A stretch of DNA of 64,000 bases from a phage. Of the stretch, positions 37,796 to 62,773 are shown one piece after another. Numbering within the stretch: position 1 is the first letter of the stretch; each line of letters opens with the position of its first letter. The stretch lies in sequence record PZ445432.1, one strand, 5' to 3'. A program made the translations under genes and the position numbers. The notes under the pieces were generated by a model. The model saw only the letters and a program-made list of their open reading frames with translations, made no database searches and had not been told where the DNA came from.

Positions 37796-39258
37796 ATATC
37801 GCTGGCCTGTTCACCTGTTGAATTTTCAGTTTTATCTTTCTTAGCACGTTTAGATTGAGCTGGCTTATCCTTTTCAATAGGGATAATGAACTCAGCTTCC
37901 ATTTGAGATATATCTTCCATTGCTAGGTTGGTAGTGTTATCCATCCGCAGAGTTTCCCAGTTCATCTTAGGCATAAACTTCACGCTACCAGAAGAACGGG
38001 TCTTAACGAAGTCAAACATAATAGCACCTTGACCATTATCAGCTTTTGCAGCATTAAGATTAGCAGCCATGTCTGCGGAATCAAGAATCCCCTTTGACAT
38101 ACGTGTTCTACCATCTTGATCGATCTGGTAAGGAGCTACGCCAGCCACGTTATGTTTCTGGCAGATAGATTTGAAAGACGAGCTAACAACCATCTGTTCT
38201 TTCCAGTCATACATATCAATGGTTTTAGAATCTGGAAGTCGGGTTTGGTTAATATAGTCAAGTAAAGCTACTGTAACCTTATCCCCATATCTAGCAACTA
38301 ATTTATTTAACTCTACGTCAACTGTTGTAATAGACAGCTCAGGGTCATAAACAATAATCATAGGAGTATGTAGCTCATATCCTTCTATTAGCTTACTTTC
38401 CATATCGTAGAAATCACTCATCTTAGCCATTGTGTACTGTTTAACGAAGTTATCGAAAAGCTCTTCACCACCATTAAACATTCTAGCTCTAGTTCTGGCT
38501 AATCTCAACAGAGCTGCACCTTCTAGAGTATTATTACGCATTGCTAATGCTGATACACCAGCTAACATGGCTAGATTACGTCTAAATACTTCATGTTCTT
38601 TCATCTCAATTGAGAAGTATGGAGCAATATCCCCATTCAAATATTGCTGAACCTGTATGTTTGAACAGATAATGGATTTACCAGTACCACGCCAACCACC
38701 AAGCAGTAACGTTTCTGTGCGAGCTAAACCAATTTGAGCGTCGAACTCATTACAAATACCAAGAGCGATTAAATTCAGTTTGGTATCTTCTTCTCTCTGG
38801 AAAATACGCATGTTATCTGCGTTGAATACTTTCCCAGTATTCGTTACTTTCTCTTCTAATTTTAAGTGAAGGGAGGCAACTCGGTTAAGAATTTCTCCCT
38901 GATCCAGCATTGTTAAATCTTGAAGCACGTCTGTTTCTAGAAGCTTCAGGAATAAATCCTGTGTATACTCGGCCTCTAGGACTTCAAGTGCCTGTTCCAT
39001 GCTAACTTCTGGAATTTGAGTGTTAGCTAAAACGACTAGAGCTTGAGAAAGGCGGGCGTTCCTATTAGCCTCAAGCATCAGTGCGTCAATGGACGGCATT
39101 GTGTTATATTTTTTATAATAATTCTGGACGGCTTGGTAAATTGAGGAGAAAGCGTCATTAAAATGATCTTTATGCAGTTTTGAGAATGTTTCCAATGCTA
39201 TTTGCTTCTGTTCGGAAGCTAGAAGCATCTTCAACACTACAGCTTGCACGTTAAACAT
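37792..39258 (-). CDS. replicative DNA helicase (DnaB-like)
   Basis: 488 aa; Walker A GGWRGTGKS and RecA-like C-terminal domain. Confidence 0.8.
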   Translation of the reverse strand: MFNVQAVVLKMLLASEQKQIALETFSKLHKDHFNDAFSSIYQAVQNYYKKYNTMPSIDALMLEANRNARLSQALVVLANTQIPEVSMEQALEVLEAEYTQDLFLKLLETDVLQDLTMLDQGEILNRVASLHLKLEEKVTNTGKVFNADNMRIFQREEDTKLNLIALGICNEFDAQIGLARTETLLLGGWRGTGKSIICSNIQVQQYLNGDIAPYFSIEMKEHEVFRRNLAMLAGVSALAMRNNTLEGAALLRLARTRARMFNGGEELFDNFVKQYTMAKMSDFYDMESKLIEGYELHTPMIIVYDPELSITTVDVELNKLVARYGDKVTVALLDYINQTRLPDSKTIDMYDWKEQMVVSSSFKSICQKHNVAGVAPYQIDQDGRTRMSKGILDSADMAANLNAAKADNGQGAIMFDFVKTRSSGSVKFMPKMNWETLRMDNTTNLAMEDISQMEAEFIIPIEKDKPAQSKRAKKDKTENSTGEQASDI

Positions 39259-39891: not shown

Positions 39892-40659
39892 TTATTCAGC
39901 AGCCGCAGCTTTTGCATCCAGTTTAGCACGCTTAGCGGCACCATCATAGTCCTTAGCAACCAGACCACGACGAGACAGCATAGATTTAACACCGCGCTCA
40001 GACTTACCAGTTTTCTCAGCGATCTCAGCAACAGTCATGTTAACCAGATCCAGACCTTCTAACAGATCTTCACGAGTTTTAGCACTTGAGGTTTCCTGTA
40101 CCGGCATAGCAGCGATACGACCTTCACGAAGCAGACTCAGAGCTTTACCACGGATCTGTTTGATATTACGACCGAAGTGAGCAGCGATAGCTTCAATAGT
40201 AGCCCCAGCAACAACCTGATTAACAAAGTCAGTTTCTTCATCCGGAGTGAAGGAACGAACAGCAGCAGTTTTTTCGGTTGGTTTAACAGAAGCGGTCATT
40301 TCCAGACTCAGGATCTTACCCTGTACCTGTTTAGCACCGAACTGACCACCAGCCACAGCAGCAGCGATTTCAGCATAAGTATACTGACCAGCATGAGCGT
40401 TCAGGAAATCAACCAGTTCAGCTTCCTGCTCAGGAGTCCACGGGGATTTCTGTACTTCGTTAGCTTTCTGTACTTCAAAACCTTCTTTACGCAGTTTAGA
40501 GCCAACAGAGCGAGCAGTAACATCTTTGCCAGTTTCAGCAGCCAGTTCAGCGGCGATAGCAGCTACTTGTTCTTGAGAGATTACATCAACACCCAGAGCA
40601 GTGGCTTTTGCTTTCAGAGACTCGGTTACACCTTCTACGTTCCAGTTCAGTTTAGACAT
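39892..40659 (-). CDS. DNA-binding protein (T5 D5-like)
   Basis: 255 aa; Ala/Lys-rich repeated modules; strong high-expression codon bias. Confidence 0.5.
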   Translation of the reverse strand: MSKLNWNVEGVTESLKAKATALGVDVISQEQVAAIAAELAAETGKDVTARSVGSKLRKEGFEVQKANEVQKSPWTPEQEAELVDFLNAHAGQYTYAEIAAAVAGGQFGAKQVQGKILSLEMTASVKPTEKTAAVRSFTPDEETDFVNQVVAGATIEAIAAHFGRNIKQIRGKALSLLREGRIAAMPVQETSSAKTREDLLEGLDLVNMTVAEIAEKTGKSERGVKSMLSRRGLVAKDYDGAAKRAKLDAKAAAAE

Positions 40660-41434
40660 TATTATTTTTCTCCAATAGTTCTTTAATCGACAGGATTTCT
40701 ATCCCATTCGTTTCGGCTTTCTTATAAGATGAGGAAGAACGCTTCGATTCATCCTCACAGATTAGGTATTTGACGTCTTTGGTAACGGATTTCTTAACCG
40801 TATATCCTAGACCTTCTAAATAGTTTGTTGCATCCGTTCTATTTGCAAAATCTTGCAAAGATCCGGTAATACATACCGCGATTCCATTTGGCTGGGCAGC
40901 TAATTCATCCGTAGTGATAATATTAGCTTTAGTGCCCTTAATACCAGTTGAGAATTTCCACGGTAGTTCGATAACATCCTTGCCTTGTGGGGAATTTAGC
41001 CAGGCTTTGTAATTTTCTCCAGCCTTGCCGTCAGCCTTCACATCATGGAAGCTAGTGCAATTTTGGGATAATTTCTTTGCTGCAACCTCTCCAATTAGAG
41101 GGATTCCTAAAGAACCGAGAACTGAACCAAAGTCAATGTCTCCGCGAACTTTAGTATTTAATTCGCTAGTTAACTTAGCGGCAACCTTGCTACCCACGGC
41201 TCTAACCAAATCTTCTTCGGTTAGGTAAAATAGTTCTGAAATCTTCGTCAGCTCCAGCTTCTCAATAGTTTTTGGGCCAAAGCCCTTTAACTTCATTTTT
41301 GAACAGAAGTTCTCAATTAACTTGCTTGATTGCGCTGGACAGTTGGACTTATTACGACAGAATAATTGTCCGTTGACAAGATCTAGCTTAGAACCACAAG
41401 AGGGACATTGTGTTGGAATTTCGATTTTCATCAA
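40652..41434 (-). CDS. NAD-dependent DNA ligase, C-terminal part (Zn finger, HhH, BRCT)
   Basis: CPSCGSKLDLVNGQLFCRNKSNC zinc finger, HhH-type GIPLIGEVAAKKL, BRCT-like C-terminus. Confidence 0.8.
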   Translation of the reverse strand: MMKIEIPTQCPSCGSKLDLVNGQLFCRNKSNCPAQSSKLIENFCSKMKLKGFGPKTIEKLELTKISELFYLTEEDLVRAVGSKVAAKLTSELNTKVRGDIDFGSVLGSLGIPLIGEVAAKKLSQNCTSFHDVKADGKAGENYKAWLNSPQGKDVIELPWKFSTGIKGTKANIITTDELAAQPNGIAVCITGSLQDFANRTDATNYLEGLGYTVKKSVTKDVKYLICEDESKRSSSSYKKAETNGIEILSIKELLEKNNNV

Positions 41435-41461
41435 ATTTCTTCCTTATCAATTTATATAAAT

Positions 41462-41490
41462 ATTATAGCAAGTATTTAAGCATTTAGCAA
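41462..41490 (-). promoter_or_regulatory. early promoter TTGCTA-17-TATAAT inside the spacer between the two ligase genes
   Basis: hexamers read on the minus strand; leader ATTTATATAAATTGATAAGGAAG. Confidence 0.6.
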
Positions 41491-41633
41491 CTACAATTTT
41501 AATTAACTTTGCTTACCCTCGCCATAACTTTCTATCCCTCAACTGAATGATAATAGTATATACCTAAGCGGCGAAAATGTCAATAACCACTTTATAATTC
41601 CGATATGGTAGATGGGTAGCAAAGGGTTATGTA

Positions 41634-42605
41634 TTAATCGTATACTCGCTCTACTATGCACGGGATTACACCACCAGCACGAATCACTCGAATCTGGCAA
41701 CCGATCTCTAGATCGAGAGAGTTAATATAATCAACGTTATTAAGAGTTGCTTTAACAATTGTAGCATCATCAATAATTACCGGTTCAAAATAACCAACTG
41801 GAGTTACTTTACCCGAAGCCCCCACCTGCCATTCAACTTTAGTAAGAGTTGTAATCTCGCCTTCTTCATCCTCTTTAATAGCGAATGCTCCACGAGGGAA
41901 TTTATTAGTCCAGCCTTCACGGAAGAATTTGTTGTTATCATTAATACGAACAACTTTACCGTCCGTCGGAATCCATTTAAAGAAGGAACGCACATTAACA
42001 ACTGTTAAGAAGTTCTCATTCTCCAGCCAAAGCATATCTTTTAAGTATGATTCTGTAATACCTACAGATTCAGCAGAACACTGGATACCATATGCAACGA
42101 AGATTAAACCACCTTCCCCAATGCGTTGTACGAAATCATCACTATCTTTGAGGTTAATAGCACCAGAGGCAAAGTTACGTTTATTTTCTACTTCTTTTGT
42201 AATTAGAACTTCACCAGTTATTTGAGTAGGTACTTTTTGGGAAATCTTTTTAGGAATATTCAGCAATCTTACGTTGCTTGTGACATCATTCCCTAGAATA
42301 CCGTTACCACGAGTTAGTGCTTGAACAAATTCGCCGTTAATATACAGCAGAGAAATTGCACAACCATCTAACTTATCGGTTTCCACCTGACCTAAAGGAT
42401 TGAATGGTGGTTTATCACCACGGTTATAGTAAACTTTCTGTAAAGAATACATACGATATAGATGTGGAATATCACCCTTAGGCCCGATCTCTTCCTCTAA
42501 TGGGAAGCGTTTTACCAGACGATCATATTCTTCATCAGAGATTAAAGACATTCCCTGGTAATATGCTTCTTGGCAACGTTTAATAAAGTCTTTTACATTA
42601 GTCAT
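41634..42605 (-). CDS. NAD-dependent DNA ligase, N-terminal part (adenylation + OB domains)
   Basis: ETDKLDG KxDG adenylation motif; NAD-ligase Ia-like N-terminus. Confidence 0.8.
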   Translation of the reverse strand: MTNVKDFIKRCQEAYYQGMSLISDEEYDRLVKRFPLEEEIGPKGDIPHLYRMYSLQKVYYNRGDKPPFNPLGQVETDKLDGCAISLLYINGEFVQALTRGNGILGNDVTSNVRLLNIPKKISQKVPTQITGEVLITKEVENKRNFASGAINLKDSDDFVQRIGEGGLIFVAYGIQCSAESVGITESYLKDMLWLENENFLTVVNVRSFFKWIPTDGKVVRINDNNKFFREGWTNKFPRGAFAIKEDEEGEITTLTKVEWQVGASGKVTPVGYFEPVIIDDATIVKATLNNVDYINSLDLEIGCQIRVIRAGGVIPCIVERVYD

Positions 42606-48820: not shown

Positions 48821-48896
48821 GTAAATTTTTAAGGAGAATGCTATCAGTGTCTTTGAGCACAGTGAAAACCGAGCCAAAATGACTCGGTTATGTGGA

Positions 48897-49091
48897 TTAG
48901 ACACTTAAAATACTTCTAATCTCTTCTATATACTTATCTACTTTTTTAGCATCTATTTTACTTAGTTTTCCTATATCAAAATCAGGATCAGTCAAATATC
49001 TTGCCATAAATTTTACTTGTTTAGCTGAAAGTTGACCCTTATTCCACTTTTTAATTTTACCATAACATACCCAATATTCTTTATTCATCAT
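48897..49091 (-). CDS. hypothetical small Lys-rich protein
   Basis: 64-aa ORF. Confidence 0.35.
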   Translation of the reverse strand: MMNKEYWVCYGKIKKWNKGQLSAKQVKFMARYLTDPDFDIGKLSKIDAKKVDKYIEEIRSILSV

Positions 49092-49473
49092 TTAGTCCCG
49101 AAACATAAATCCCAACACGGTTTAATTGTTCTTTGGCTTCTTTGAGAATATCTGGAGTGTACTCCCAAATATCATCTTCCACCTGTAAAAGATGGGGCGA
49201 ACAACCGTCATCGGGCACACGACATATGGCCAAACCACGTGGATGGAACAAAGAGAAATTTAGTGCAACAATTAAACCCATAGCAGACAACTCATTCCAA
49301 TCCAATTCCCATTCCCTAGCGTAGCCTGATAGGAAAACACCAATACAGGGATCGTCTATTTGCTGCTCCGGAAAAGTAAAGGAGGCTTGTCTTACCCCCA
49401 ACCAACGTTGTAGCAGCTTCTCCGCACGCTTCACCAAACTAGGATCAATCTGACGCCAATATACTTGTTCCAT
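49081..49473 (-). CDS. hypothetical protein, paralog A of a tandem pair
   Basis: shares DDPCIG...W.EL..MGL..ALN..LF.P core with the adjacent ORF. Confidence 0.55.
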   Translation of the reverse strand: MEQVYWRQIDPSLVKRAEKLLQRWLGVRQASFTFPEQQIDDPCIGVFLSGYAREWELDWNELSAMGLIVALNFSLFHPRGLAICRVPDDGCSPHLLQVEDDIWEYTPDILKEAKEQLNRVGIYVSGLNDE

Positions 49474-49482
49474 TGTGCCACC

Positions 49483-49911
49483 TTAGGCAGTTAAACCAGG
49501 AATTTGATAACCAAAACGACGAAGTTTCTGGATACCATCATTTACTTCTTCCGGTGAGTAAGACCAACCGTAATGTTCATCAACTTGAAAGCCAGGAGAT
49601 TCACTGGTTTTATAGTTAACAACAATACGGTGTTTATTGGGCATAAATAGCTTATAGTTTAATGCAAAAACCAACCCCATTTCATCCAGCTCTTTCCAGC
49701 CGACAATCTCTTCCAGACCATCCTCTACCTGCACAACTAGACCAATACACGGGGCCTCATCAATATCATCTTTAAAAGCAAAGGAGATTTCATTATTTTC
49801 ACACCATATTTTCAAGGAGTTAATAGTCTCATTATACAGGCTAGCTGGGAGAGTACGCCAGAAGTTAACCAAAATTGGATTAGCTTCTTTAGAGAATACA
49901 TTATTGAACAT
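49483..49911 (-). CDS. hypothetical protein, paralog B of a tandem pair
   Basis: shares EAPCIG...WKELDEMGLVFALNYKLFMP core with the adjacent ORF. Confidence 0.55.
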   Translation of the reverse strand: MFNNVFSKEANPILVNFWRTLPASLYNETINSLKIWCENNEISFAFKDDIDEAPCIGLVVQVEDGLEEIVGWKELDEMGLVFALNYKLFMPNKHRIVVNYKTSESPGFQVDEHYGWSYSPEEVNDGIQKLRRFGYQIPGLTA

Positions 49912-49913
49912 AT

Positions 49914-50420
49914 TTACACCTTAAGTTGTTGTAGGGCTTTACACATTTCAAGATCTGGACTAAATTCTAGCATATAGCTAACAGCCATTAAATCTTGAAG
50001 GTTTATTCCAGTTCTACCGTTGACTATAACCGTTGGATACTGGTACATCATAGCACCAGCGTCATCCAGCACACACCAATGTTTGAGCTTATGCTTTTCA
50101 ACGAAGCGAAGAACAGAATTACCCCTAGATAGCCCACCACCAGTAAAATCCGTTGTACCAAGAAAACGATCAATAAGATCTAATCTGGTCATAATCTGAA
50201 CGTTCTCCATCTCATTCCTGACAGAGAACCATGAAGATACCCCAACAATCATTATTGGAGAAGGACGAATAAAGTCCTGAAAAGCCTTGAGAAGCGGCTT
50301 AAAAACCCAGTCACTTCCAAAGAAAATCTTTTCATCATCAGGTGCATGATGGTGGGAGATGCTCGAATTAAGCACCCCATCGATGTCTAGAAAAATAATT
50401 GGAGTATTACTTATTTCCAT
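49914..50420 (-). CDS. HAD-superfamily phosphatase-like protein
   Basis: FLDIDGVLN matches HAD motif I (DxDGV); downstream Ser, Lys and VLDDA fit motifs II-IV. Confidence 0.6.
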   Translation of the reverse strand: MEISNTPIIFLDIDGVLNSSISHHHAPDDEKIFFGSDWVFKPLLKAFQDFIRPSPIMIVGVSSWFSVRNEMENVQIMTRLDLIDRFLGTTDFTGGGLSRGNSVLRFVEKHKLKHWCVLDDAGAMMYQYPTVIVNGRTGINLQDLMAVSYMLEFSPDLEMCKALQQLKV

Positions 50421-50589
50421 TTCTGTTCCTTTCTAAGAACGTATCATACTCAACCGTATCAACATATATGACACCATAGTCATCGGATTTATAGTCCATT
50501 TCCCATAGCTCACATCGATAGCACCAACTACCATCCGCCCATACAAATATATCATCGGGATGTGTATACACAGATTTAACTATGGACAT
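50407..50589 (-). CDS. hypothetical small protein
   Basis: 60-aa ORF. Confidence 0.35.
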   Translation of the reverse strand: MSIVKSVYTHPDDIFVWADGSWCYRCELWEMDYKSDDYGVIYVDTVEYDTFLERNRNGNK

Positions 50590-51404
50590 ATTTGTTTTCC
50601 CGGCATATAAGGTCTACCCTCTAGATGAGCTTCTACACGAGCAATAAAACCAGGATCACTGAAAGCATCTACTGCACCTTTACTCCAGTAAGGAATACCA
50701 CGATCTTCCAGTTGGTACATATCACTACGAGTCATACCTTGATAGCCTGGTTTCGACGCTAGGGCACTATCATAGTAGTTAACTACCATAAGTTTCGCAG
50801 CAGTCCGATTAAGAACAGGGAATAGTTCCCAGTAGAAGTTAATTACTTGGTTAGAGCAACCAACTACAACGATCATATCTTGACTGGTAATACCATCAAA
50901 AATATTGTACATTTCTGCGTACGCTGGAGCATGCTCACCAAAAAAGATTACATTAGGTTTAACCCATTTATAATCATCTGGGTCAATAGAGTTATACCCA
51001 ACATCAATAACCCGTTTATTACTACTATTGTAGCTATCAGCTACAACAACCTCTTTTAAATATCCGTGAATGTGCAGAATATCACTATGTGGAACGCCAG
51101 CACGCTCAATAAGGTCATCAACGTTGGTAGTCAAGTTTACTACTTGACCCGGATATTTCTTATACCATTCACCAATACGCAAGTGTGCAAGATTAGGTTC
51201 AACAGTTTCTAACTCTTCACGCCGCTTGTTGTAAAACATATGGGTTTTATGATAAAAGTTACCACGAAAGGCGTGAATATTACATACTTCTTCTAGATCA
51301 TAATCATCCCACAGTGCTTTACCACTAGCAGTATCGGTACGAAAAGCTCGTACACCACTTTCAACGCTCAAACCTGCACCGCTAATAATAATTAATCTAC
51401 GCAC
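50580..51404 (-). CDS. Sir2-family (sirtuin-like) protein lacking the zinc-ribbon cysteines
   Basis: ISGAGLSVESGVRAFR (GAGISxxSGIPxFR), TTNVDDLIERAG (TQNIDxLHxxAG) and ILHIHG (catalytic His) motifs; no CxxC pairs. Confidence 0.7.
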   Translation of the reverse strand: MRRLIIISGAGLSVESGVRAFRTDTASGKALWDDYDLEEVCNIHAFRGNFYHKTHMFYNKRREELETVEPNLAHLRIGEWYKKYPGQVVNLTTNVDDLIERAGVPHSDILHIHGYLKEVVVADSYNSSNKRVIDVGYNSIDPDDYKWVKPNVIFFGEHAPAYAEMYNIFDGITSQDMIVVVGCSNQVINFYWELFPVLNRTAAKLMVVNYYDSALASKPGYQGMTRSDMYQLEDRGIPYWSKGAVDAFSDPGFIARVEAHLEGRPYMPGKQICP

Positions 51405-51598
51405 TATACGATTCCTCGCTTAAATCCTTCGATAATATTTCGGAGTAAAATTGCTTCCTCCGGGCGTACCTTCTCTTGCTTAATAAGCATATCCAATCCA
51501 GCAATACAACTAGTTACACCAGCATTATAACCAGAGTTCCATTGCTCAATGAGCATGTTTTCTAGATTACTTTTTAGATTCTGATTCAAGAAGTCCAT
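51404..51598 (-). CDS. hypothetical small protein
   Basis: 64-aa ORF. Confidence 0.35.
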   Translation of the reverse strand: MDFLNQNLKSNLENMLIEQWNSGYNAGVTSCIAGLDMLIKQEKVRPEEAILLRNIIEGFKRGIV

Positions 51599-51791
51599 AA
51601 AGTTTCTCCTCTAGTCCCATAATACGATTTTCATAAGAAGCACGCAACTTTTCAATTGCCAGCGCACGCACTGTAACCTCATTAGAATTAATAGCTAACT
51701 GGGCCAGATCTTCTGTTTCCATACGTCCGTTGTAAATTAAGCGATATTTAAGGTGTTTCACATTCTTGGTCATTATTAAACTCCACTGCAA
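51567..51791 (-). CDS. hypothetical small protein
   Basis: 74-aa ORF; the real start may be the internal Met (MTKNVKHL). Confidence 0.35.
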   Translation of the reverse strand: MQWSLIMTKNVKHLKYRLIYNGRMETEDLAQLAINSNEVTVRALAIEKLRASYENRIMGLEEKLYGLLESESKK

Positions 51792-52174: not shown

Positions 52175-52203
52175 ATTATACATAAATTTTTAGCTGAAAG
52201 CAA
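52175..52203 (-). promoter_or_regulatory. early promoter TTGCTT-17-TATAAT
   Basis: hexamers read on the minus strand; leader AGATTTATAAATTTGAGAGGAG. Confidence 0.6.
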
Positions 52204-52207
52204 ATAA

Positions 52208-52246
52208 AATAAAAGCCAGGTCGACTAGCAACCCGGCTGATTAGCT
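52208..52246 (-). terminator. putative rho-independent terminator downstream of nrdD
   Basis: minus-strand hairpin gccggg-loop-cctggc followed by TTTTATTTTATTT. Confidence 0.45.
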
Positions 52247-62042: not shown

Positions 62043-62327
62043 ATGAGAATTTATAACTCAAATTCATTAGGATTTAAACCATTGAGAAAACGTGCACAAT
62101 CACCTCGTCAAATAAGAAAGGCTAATATTGGTGAACCAGAAACACGTCTTCCACCTCCTCCAGAACAACGTTTAGTTTATCTGGACGAAGAATTAGCGGA
62201 ACGCGAAAGAAAAGCTCAAGAAGAGATTAAGCATAAGAAAATGTGTACTGCTCCAGCCTACTCCAAAGGGGCTTATCAATATATCTATACAGCCGAGGAG
62301 GCTAAAGATGCGGGGCGTAAAAAATGA
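62043..62327 (+). CDS. hypothetical basic protein
   Basis: 94-aa ORF with GAGGAGGG RBS. Confidence 0.5.
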   Translation: MRIYNSNSLGFKPLRKRAQSPRQIRKANIGEPETRLPPPPEQRLVYLDEELAERERKAQEEIKHKKMCTAPAYSKGAYQYIYTAEEAKDAGRKK

Positions 62328-62773
62328 AGATTACTGAATTTAAAGGTACTTATAGTTTTTTATCTAACTTTTATTTATCACCAATTACTTTCGAATATCT
62401 AAATGAGATATGGCATGCTGATACTGTAGAACATGCTTTTCAGGCTATGAAATCCGACCAAAAAGATGATGTAGCTCATGTGCTGCGCTCCCTAAATGCA
62501 GGAGTTGCCAAACGTAGAGGACGTAAATTAACTCTGCGCTCTGACTGGGATAAGGTAAAAGATGATGTAATGTTAGAGCTTTTACGGTTAAAGTTTGCAA
62601 TCCCTGATTTGAGGGACAAACTGTTAGCAACAAAAAATGCAACTTTGATCGAAGGAAATACCTGGGGAGATACATACTGGGGTGTTTGCCGAGGCATCGG
62701 GGATAATACTTTAGGAGTTCTTTTGATGCAGGTAAGGTCTGAAATTAAAAGAAGTTTACAGTTAATAAATTAA
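62324..62773 (+). CDS. NADAR-domain protein (YbiA-like)
   Basis: FLSNFY...VEHAFQAMK...RSDWDKVKDDVMLELLRLKF...W...GDNTLGVLLMQVR matches the NADAR/YbiA pattern along its length. Confidence 0.8.
   Translation: MKITEFKGTYSFLSNFYLSPITFEYLNEIWHADTVEHAFQAMKSDQKDDVAHVLRSLNAGVAKRRGRKLTLRSDWDKVKDDVMLELLRLKFAIPDLRDKLLATKNATLIEGNTWGDTYWGVCRGIGDNTLGVLLMQVRSEIKRSLQLIN

Follow-up and report, generated by a model that had tools for sequence, protein, structure and literature searches.

What kind of sirtuin does a T5-like phage carry among its early genes, and on what does it act? The gene in question, sir2, lies at 50580..51404 on the minus strand of a 64,000-nucleotide stretch of DNA (the window; sequence record PZ445432.1) that is 100% identical to MZ501074.1, the genome of Escherichia phage HildyBeyeler (BASEL Bas33, Tequintavirus, T5-like). 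It encodes 274 amino acids from a GTG start that overlaps the stop codon of the upstream gene by one base and is preceded by a GAGGA Shine-Dalgarno sequence, so that the open reading frame (ORF) stands as an original prediction, made from the DNA sequence alone, had described it. Its locus name is bas33_0055, its label in the record is 'Sir2-like protein', and its orthologue is T5.102, to which each of the three original T5 genome records (2004-series accessions) gives a Sir2-like or CobB-like label. The gene counts as known because of these annotations, and its clade, its zinc-less small domain and one functional hypothesis are likewise already in the databases or the literature. We regard the following as nearly certain: the product is a bona fide sirtuin with its catalytic residues intact; its clade, specific to phages, goes back to zinc-bearing, CobB/SIRT5-like (class III-type) ancestors and has kept the beta scaffold of the small domain while replacing all of the zinc-ligand cysteines; and its gene is the fourth in a nine-gene early operon that has a T5-type sigma-70 promoter and also encodes a HAD_SAK_2 phosphatase and two DUF7415 proteins.

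The original prediction recognised the gene by three sirtuin signatures, GAGLSVESGVRAFR, TTNVDDLIERAG and ILHIHG, all of which are found in the protein, and it named a hidden Markov model (HMM) search for Sir2 families as its check. That search returned the Pfam SIR2 profile PF02146 above its gathering threshold (E 1.5e-24; 87.3 bits against a cut-off of 24) over profile positions 1-178 of 180, and as the only family in a Pfam scan at E<=1. PHROG 2162, 'Sir2', matches at E 9e-121. On these two scores, the motif match is not due to chance. The AlphaFold2 (AF2) model of the protein, with a predicted local distance difference test (pLDDT) score of 90.1 and a predicted template modelling (pTM) score of 0.88, has a Rossmann domain for binding nicotinamide adenine dinucleotide (NAD) and a small domain, and its fold matches solved sirtuins. 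The motifs GAGxSxxSG...FR, TxN(I/V)D, HG and FGE are all present, and they are invariant across 120 close homologs, that is, sequences of at least 49% identity. The invariant residues within the individual motifs are given in Table 1; R62, F154, F155, E157, G182, S184 and N209 are invariant as well.

The absence of the Cys4 zinc ribbon of canonical sirtuins, also noticed beforehand, is borne out. The protein has three cysteines (C41, C183 and C273), and none of them falls in residues ~115-148, the segment that aligns with the zinc ribbon of E. coli CobB. The model places three confident beta-strands in this former ribbon segment. Across the 120 close homologs, the small-domain segment has no column of conserved cysteines, and the zinc ribbon cysteines are missing from all 120. 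The representatives chosen from five phage lineages likewise lack them without exception and have in common the clade signatures EVCN, FYNxRR, TNVDDLxERAG, DIGY and KPNVxFFGE. In an exhaustive search, 1.84 billion representative proteins yielded 2950 relatives at E<=1e-3, among which the 16 closest clusters are zinc-less. Of the top 146, 50 are zinc-less and 92 have at least three cysteines, mostly as both CxxC pairs, on an unchanged scaffold; CMDCKNIFEIGYSKY...KCEKCGSKWIKPYIVFFGE is an example of the two pairs in a zinc-bearing relative. Since the zinc-bearing relatives carry their CxxC pairs on the same scaffold, we judge from the alignments and the model that the ribbon is degenerate and the domain itself is retained, rather than missing. 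By the same alignments, zinc loss is a property of the whole phage clade. Skliros et al. (2016) had already noted that the zinc ligand is absent from the small 'finger' domain of Vibrio-phage homologs, and T5 is among the carriers in their list (PMC5107563).

The nearest solved structures are those of deacylases. A Foldseek search of the PDB returned only deacylase sirtuins among its top 50, led by E. coli CobB (E 5e-17, TM 0.84) and followed by Sir2Af1, SIRT5 and Sir2Tm. When selected folds are ranked against the model, Sir2Af1 (21.2) and PfSir2A (19.3) stand above SIRT1/2/4, Hst2 and ySir2 (16-18), then come SirTM (14.6 and 14.0) and SIRT6 (14.1), and the SIR2 domains of the defence systems PsSIR2, HerA-Sir2, ThsA, KomC and AVAST5 fall at 9.8-13.6. 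By sequence, the best matches among solved structures are E. coli CobB, Sir2Af1/Af2 and SIRT5, and the best NCBIfam matches are all CobB-type deacylase models. CobB, human SIRT5 and Sir2Af1 of A. fulgidus are all class III sirtuin deacylases, and they are ~24% identical to the phage protein. In class III sirtuins, a Y-x-x-R pair serves to recognize acidic acyl groups. The phage sirtuin has this pair as Y58/R61 together with a small residue, C41, at the A76/A86 position. It differs from CobB in lacking the zinc-ligand cysteines, in having Cys41 in place of A76 (A86 in SIRT5) and in having N189 in place of the proline of VYP, and its C-terminal region, residues ~210-274, is longer than in CobB, SIRT5 or Sir2Af1. 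The position of Cys41 is that of the small alanine in the 'ATP' motif of class III sirtuins, which lines the acyl pocket. Cys41 does not vary in a 72-sequence alignment (119 of the 120 close homologs), and ~80% of wider relatives, zinc-bearing and zinc-less alike, retain it.

The original prediction had left three functional options for the gene, namely a protein deacylase, an ADP-ribosyltransferase of the SirTM class and an NAD-depleting defence effector, and had proposed to look for a Rossmann pocket and to compare the fold with SirTM and the defence SIR2 domains. The sirtuin fold is there, the deacylases are its closest relatives, and of the three options the deacylase is the favoured one, the other two failing on the features that define their families. 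The SirTM class is defined by the change of HG to QG, by a macrodomain partner and by a GVGx[NT]TP loop (Rack et al. 2015, PMC4518038). The phage sirtuin has an invariant H113-G114, its pyrophosphate loop does not have the GVGx[NT]TP form, and no gene of the sir2 operon encodes a macro, GcvH or LplA domain; on these features and the fold ranking, a SirTM identity is rejected. Membership of the defence-type SIR2 NADases (ThsA, DSR1/2, SIR2-HerA, SPARSA) is rejected on profiles, partners and fold ranking alike. A PADLOC-DB search with the phage sirtuin returned no family at E<=1, the Pfam scan at E<=1 gave no SIR2_2 match, and there is no fusion or operon with a SLOG, HerA, pAgo, STAND or TIR sensor or partner, the sirtuin being a single-domain protein beside HAD, DUF7415 and small ORFs.

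The reading we favour, at a probability of roughly 0.4, is that the phage sirtuin is an NAD+-dependent lysine deacylase, because of its nearest relatives, its complete active site, its Y-x-x-R pair and its conserved hydrophobic tunnel. None of the residues that the deacylase cycle needs varies among the 120 homologs, nor does the Y58/R61 pair. NAD+ would be bound in the Rossmann pocket (G9-R22, N94 and D96), and the acyl-lysine would enter through the tunnel formed by F21, V152, F154/F155 and V187/I188. The carbonyl oxygen of the acyl-lysine would attack C1' of the nicotinamide ribose and expel nicotinamide; His113 would then activate the ribose hydroxyl, and in this way the imidate would be resolved into free lysine and O-acyl-ADP-ribose. 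The Y58/R61 pair with the small C41 suggests that acyl groups with a negative charge, such as succinyl or malonyl, are preferred, R61 being retained in about 75% of wider relatives. The targets would presumably be host or phage proteins in early infection, and ADP-ribose by-products might be cleared by the neighbouring phosphatase and, in other phages, by Nudix and cREC enzymes. A NAMPT gene stands beside the sirtuin gene in some other phages, which fits an enzyme that releases nicotinamide.

Several points weigh against a deacylase. All seven NCBIfam CobB-type models score below their cut-offs, NF040867 reaching 90.7 bits against a required 320, and therefore the phage sirtuin is not a CobB orthologue. 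In about a quarter of the wider relatives, including a jumbo-phage member, R61 is replaced by L, M, V or other residues. The gene context points towards RNA-end or ADP-ribose-phosphate processing and away from protein acylation, the neighbours being HAD_SAK_2 in HildyBeyeler, an RNA ligase with a kinase and cREC in rV5-like phages and Mydovirus, and 2H and Nudix-cREC in a jumbo phage, and neither an acyltransferase partner nor an obvious target is encoded near sir2. Laboratory growth does not require the gene, as a natural deletion in phage DT57C makes clear. Finally, no biochemical study of any clade member was found; literature searches on T5.102 and the phage sirtuins turned up annotations, two predictions from comparative genomics and a single entry in a CRISPRi screen.

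The sir2 gene stands in a run of nine overlapping or nearly abutting ORFs that is read from 52146 to 48897 on the minus strand (Table 1). In order, these are orf132, orf68, orf64, sir2, orf60, the HAD_SAK_2 phosphatase gene, the two DUF7415 paralogues and a 64-amino-acid (64-aa) ORF without annotation. The putative promoter of the operon was read from the sequence, and we take it to resemble the classic T5 promoters; a scan for the sigma-70 consensus did not flag it, its -35 element falling short of the scan's threshold. The location between nrdD and the primase/helicase genes, with an apparent T5-type sigma-70 promoter directly upstream of the operon, is consistent with the early region to which the original prediction had assigned the gene. 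That early-gene block stood up; what had been missed was the HAD_SAK_2 gene in the same operon and the RNA-end-processing neighbours of sirtuin genes elsewhere.

Table 1. Coordinates of the sir2 gene, its motifs, its operon and other features of the window.
Feature	Position	Strand	Basis or remark
Terminator closing nrdD, intrinsic, just upstream of the operon promoter	52214..52238	-	Terminator scan and T5 annotation
Putative operon promoter: -35 TTGCTT, 17-nt A/T-rich spacer, -10 TATAAT	52175..52203	-	Read from sequence; T5 promoter annotated at the equivalent place
bas33_0058, first operon ORF, 132 aa	51748..52146	-
bas33_0057, upstream ORF	51567..51773	-
bas33_0056, upstream 64-aa ORF	51404..51598	-	Stop shares one base with the sir2 GTG
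NAD-binding loop GAGLSVESGVRAFR, residues 9-22	51339..51380	-	G9, A10, G11, S13, S16, G17, F21, R22 invariant in 120 homologs
Cys41 codon	51282-51284
Y58-x-x-R61 motif, equivalent to CobB Y92/R95 and SIRT5 Y102/R105	51222..51233	-	CobB alignment; Y58, R61 invariant in 120 homologs
TTNVDDLIERAG, residues 92-103, nicotinamide/ribose pocket, N94 and D96	51096..51131	-	T93, N94, V95, D96 invariant
ILHIHG, residues 109-114, catalytic His113	51063..51080	-	H113, G114 invariant
Degenerate zinc ribbon, residues ~115-148, no Cys	50961..51062	-	Predicted beta-strands 114-122, 131-134, 147-152; block-mean pLDDT 90-96
bas33_0054, 60-aa ORF over sir2 stop and HAD start	50407..50589	-	PHROG 5116; accompanies sir2 in T5-like loci including Klebsiella phages
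bas33_0053, HAD_SAK_2 phosphatase, T5.105 orthologue, DIDG catalytic motif	49914..50420	-	PF18143, E 1.2e-20
bas33_0052, DUF7415 protein a	49483..49911	-
bas33_0051, DUF7415 protein b	49081..49473	-	Paralogue of a (30% identity)
64-aa ORF, last operon gene	48897..49091	-	PHROG 29527, E 2e-40; absent from the GenBank feature table
Putative operon terminator, hairpin AACCGAG...CTCGGTT with T-rich tail	48866..48889	-	Read from sequence; T5 terminator annotated after T5.107
NAD-dependent DNA ligase, two ORFs (together 40652-42605)	40652-41431 and 41634-42605	-	One with adenylation and OB-fold, the other with HhH and BRCT
NADAR-domain protein bas33_0070	62324-62773	+	PF08719, E 6e-22; record label 'hypothetical'; beside RNase H and DUF7022 gene

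Homologs of the phage sirtuin occur in 998 of 50,697 phage records, about 2%, and the carriers are T5-like phages, Vequintavirus, Mydovirus, phi92-like phages, jumbo phages and Vibrio schizoT4 phages. In the Vequintavirus AlexBoehm, a PNK-like kinase, a calcineurin-like phosphoesterase, an RNA ligase and cREC precede the sirtuin and a tRNA cluster adjoins; the neighbourhood in Mydovirus KB57 resembles it. In the Yersinia jumbo phage fHe-Yen9-04, the order is NadM/Nudix, NAMPT, a 2H/Acb1-like gene, the sirtuin and a Nudix-cREC fusion. For the 2H protein there, the profile match is to the anti-CBASS Acb1 family (PF23474, E 2.6e-17). NadM and NAMPT are found upstream, and the block could equally be taken for an anti-signalling and NAD-salvage island, and not for one of RNA repair. 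In a census of 59 IMG/VR viral sirtuin loci, 29 are T5-like with the HAD gene, and all but one of these also have orf60 and/or both DUF7415 genes. Three more are Klebsiella T5-like loci that keep DUF7415, and in two cases orf60, and have no HAD gene, so that the HAD_SAK_2 gene, two genes downstream of sir2 in HildyBeyeler, accompanies the sirtuin in 29 of the 32 T5-like loci. Twelve of the 59 have the set of RNA ligase, kinase and metallophosphoesterase. The remaining group, about 14 of the 59, has neither HAD, DUF7415/orf60 nor the RNA-repair set, and in the loci sampled from it the neighbours are C5 DNA methylase, PolA, endonuclease VII or NAMPT. The association of phage sirtuins with RNA-end processing is real and recurrent, and it is not universal, because these loci have other neighbours; a universal RNA-repair neighbourhood is rejected on the same count.

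The locus is also mosaic. In Epseptimavirus-type relatives of T5, the sirtuin is a 51-52% identical allele in surroundings that are otherwise ~90% identical; orf60 is 53-67% identical, the flanking HAD 90% and the primase 90-95%. Near the locus, nrdD occurs as two alleles (~60% or 99%). The sirtuin of HildyBeyeler has its closer counterparts in Mydovirus (60-62%), not in other T5-like genera, and these identities suggest that phage families have exchanged alleles.

This context underlies the most substantial rival explanation. Iyer, Burroughs, Anantharaman and Aravind (2022) predicted a repair enzyme that removes 2'-phosphates from RNA in the manner of KptA/Tpt1, because of the HAD_SAK_2 gene and the RNA-end-processing neighbours (PMC9503650). 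We consider it possible, though on balance doubtful. The 2'-phosphate of a cleaved or re-ligated RNA would attack NAD+ in the sirtuin active site and nicotinamide would leave; His113 would then activate the 2''-OH of the ADP-ribose to attack the phosphate, giving ADP-ribose 1'',2''-cyclic phosphate and a restored 2'-OH. The HAD_SAK_2 protein, and elsewhere cREC, 2H or Nudix proteins, would prepare the RNA end or degrade the ADP-ribose phosphate product, and the aim of it all would be the repair of tRNAs that host anticodon nucleases had cleaved. Chemically, the idea is plausible, its two steps paralleling the sirtuin cycle, because the Tpt1 and sirtuin cycles both pair an attack of an oxyanion on C1'' with an attack by the 2''-OH of the ribose. 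The published neighbourhoods are confirmed independently by the HAD_SAK_2 gene of the T5-like loci, by the kinase, metallophosphoesterase, RNA ligase and cREC of AlexBoehm, KB57 and their like, and by the 2H/Acb1-like gene and Nudix-cREC fusion that flank the jumbo-phage sirtuin. The carrier groups also have tRNA genes, and the catalytic cores of sirtuin and HAD were lost jointly in DT57C. Set against this, the prediction was made purely from gene context, about 14 of the 59 loci have no RNA-repair neighbours, and the three Klebsiella T5-like loci have the sirtuin and no HAD gene. HildyBeyeler itself has no RNA ligase, cREC, PNK-type kinase or 2H detectable by tblastn at E<=1 in the window and stretches L008 and L068, with seeds limited to the rV5-like, Mydovirus and jumbo-phage proteins, and its record has no RNA healing or sealing annotation from position 38274 to the end; therefore, the RNA-repair pathway would be incomplete in T5-like phages. 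The protein is acidic in all five lineages (isoelectric point 4.7-5.7) and keeps the narrow hydrophobic lysine tunnel. To judge from known sirtuin structures, such a tunnel suits a long aliphatic tether like lysine better than a 2'-phosphate on the backbone.

Two other roles are less likely. The sirtuin could transfer ADP-ribose from NAD+ onto a protein or small molecule for host takeover, like T4 Alt/ModA/ModB or SirTM, the target being, for example, RNA polymerase or some translation or defence factor of the host. Some sirtuins have such an activity, as shown for SirTM (PMC4518038), the predicted early expression from a strong promoter would suit it, and the genome carries a NADAR gene, a candidate processor of ADP-ribose adducts. 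We nevertheless think it improbable, given that the features that define SirTM are absent (HG rather than QG, no macrodomain partner, no GVGx[NT]TP) and that the NADAR gene is 11 kb distant, on the other strand and in a different operon. The last role, an NAD+ hydrolase or modulator of the NAD pool that shuts down host metabolism or interferes with NAD-dependent defences, draws on the NADase activity of SIR2 domains in ThsA, DSR1/2, SIR2-HerA and related systems (PMC10973363; PMC9503650) and on the NAD-salvage genes that adjoin the sirtuin in some phages. It is very improbable in view of the lack of a PADLOC or SIR2_2 match and of any fusion to a sensor or regulator. The phage DNA ligase, too, needs NAD+, so uncontrolled depletion would harm the phage itself, and canonical sirtuins with this active site require an acyl substrate before they turn over NAD+. 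More broadly, a counter-defence or host-takeover role of the sirtuin is possible.

Natural deletions and a fitness screen give a view of the gene in use. In DT57C, gp102 is a 90-aa 'defective Sir2' in which sirtuin residues ~171-220 run on into HAD residues ~128-168; the catalytic cores of both proteins were lost together in this viable laboratory phage, and its relative DT571/2 keeps both genes. SelmaRatti and SHSML-45 have similar truncations at the sir2-HAD locus. In a genome-wide CRISPRi-ART screen of T5, T5.102 was called 'Semi-Fit' (bioRxiv 10.1101/2023.09.18.558157, supplement), which denotes a large fold-change with variable guides, and polar effects on the operon possibly lie behind that call; we count it among the points in favour of a deacylase. 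It should be added that the HAD_SAK_2 gene, T5.105 in T5, is mislabelled 'Sir2 (NAD-dependent deacetylase)' in many RefSeq records of T5-like phages. The error arises because PHROG 18062 carries a Sir2 label, and it is propagating. The profile, phrog_18062, aligns with the HAD protein in its C-terminal half at E 1.5e-55 and only weakly with the sirtuin (E 1.6e-6), and it fits the DT57C-type chimera, in which sirtuin residues 171-220 are joined to HAD residues 128-168. The apparent second Sir2 gene in such records is an annotation artefact.

The original prediction had further seen a theme of NAD and ADP-ribose in the genome, linking sir2 to an NAD-dependent DNA ligase and a NADAR gene. Both genes are present, the ligase as two ORFs (Table 1), and the theme is not supported: the three genes are unlinked and stand in different operons. 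Between the ligase ORFs is a 202-bp gap; two genes downstream of them, there is a putative homing endonuclease gene. A NadR/PnuC pair for NAD salvage (NARP3) has reportedly been described for the sister BASEL phage Bas30. As a counterpart in HildyBeyeler, bas33_0084/bas33_0085, two candidates picked by gene numbering alone, are rejected: their products are SPFH/Band-7 and small Toprim proteins and not NadR/PnuC. These two genes are at record positions 69151-70904, inside the tRNA gene region and outside the window. On the NADAR family, a passage of PMC13464706 cites proteins of T4-like phages as reported anti-DarT factors.

As a sequence finding, this is ordinary: a long-annotated gene of a model phage, a described clade of sirtuins and a zinc-less small domain that was noted before. 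The interest lies in the substrate of a sirtuin that is found in about 2% of sequenced phage genomes, keeps all of its catalytic residues and has a large but variable knock-down effect in T5. If the deacylase reading is true, phages would be seen to edit the acyl-proteome of the host or their own directly. If the RNA 2'-phosphate reading is true, there would be a new sirtuin chemistry and a new phage counter-measure against tRNA-cleaving defences. The zinc-less clade would then consist not of protein deacylases but of the first sirtuins with nucleic acids or nucleotide phosphates as substrates, which would strip RNA of 2'-phosphates or a related phospho-adduct by NAD+-dependent ADP-ribosyl transfer. 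It would stand in for Tpt1/KptA without being homologous to it, and its HAD, cREC, 2H and Nudix partners would help to undo anticodon-nuclease damage in tRNA-rich phages, an outcome that we think possible, though on balance doubtful. DT57C, with sir2/HAD deleted, and DT571/2, with both intact, form a natural pair, and T5 and the BASEL phages are available.

Among known systems, KptA/Tpt1 is a proposed functional analogy only, in the NAD+-dependent two-step transfer through an ADP-ribosylated intermediate; its ART-like fold is unrelated to the Rossmann fold of sirtuins, and the two have no sequence or structural similarity. The Sir2/CobB proteins of the Vibrio phages phiSt2, phiGrn1 and KVP40 belong to the same phage clade in a different gene context (PMC5107563), and the homolog in the schizoT4 phage PVA8 is 40.6% identical to the HildyBeyeler sirtuin and aligns throughout. 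For the Vibrio-phage Sir2, Skliros et al. proposed deacetylation of acetyl-CoA synthetase, from modelling and transcript levels only (PMC5107563). T5.102 and its orthologues in Tequintavirus and other Demerecviridae are the same gene, with 94.8% DNA identity to T5 over a 2-kb region and 90-98% protein identity across T5-type sirtuin loci. The T5 counterpart of the operon is T5.100-T5.107, with promoter and terminator annotated. HildyBeyeler differs in lacking the small T5.103 ORF and in having one extra 64-aa ORF at the operon end, which T5 appears to be without, since its terminator directly follows T5.107. A published description is that of Iyer et al. (2022), who recognised a 'distinct clade of viral sirtuins' and typified its third neighbourhood by Escherichia phage SP15 (Viruses 14:1977, PMC9503650). 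SP15 is T5-like, 95.1% identical in DNA at the locus, and has the sirtuin with its 'Swiss-army-knife' HAD phosphatase just as HildyBeyeler does, with nothing structural that differs. To that description the present analysis adds that the clade is uniformly zinc-less, that this T5-like genome has no detectable RNA ligase, that DUF7415 and the 60-aa ORF are equally faithful neighbours, and that a sizeable minority of loci stand outside an RNA-repair context.

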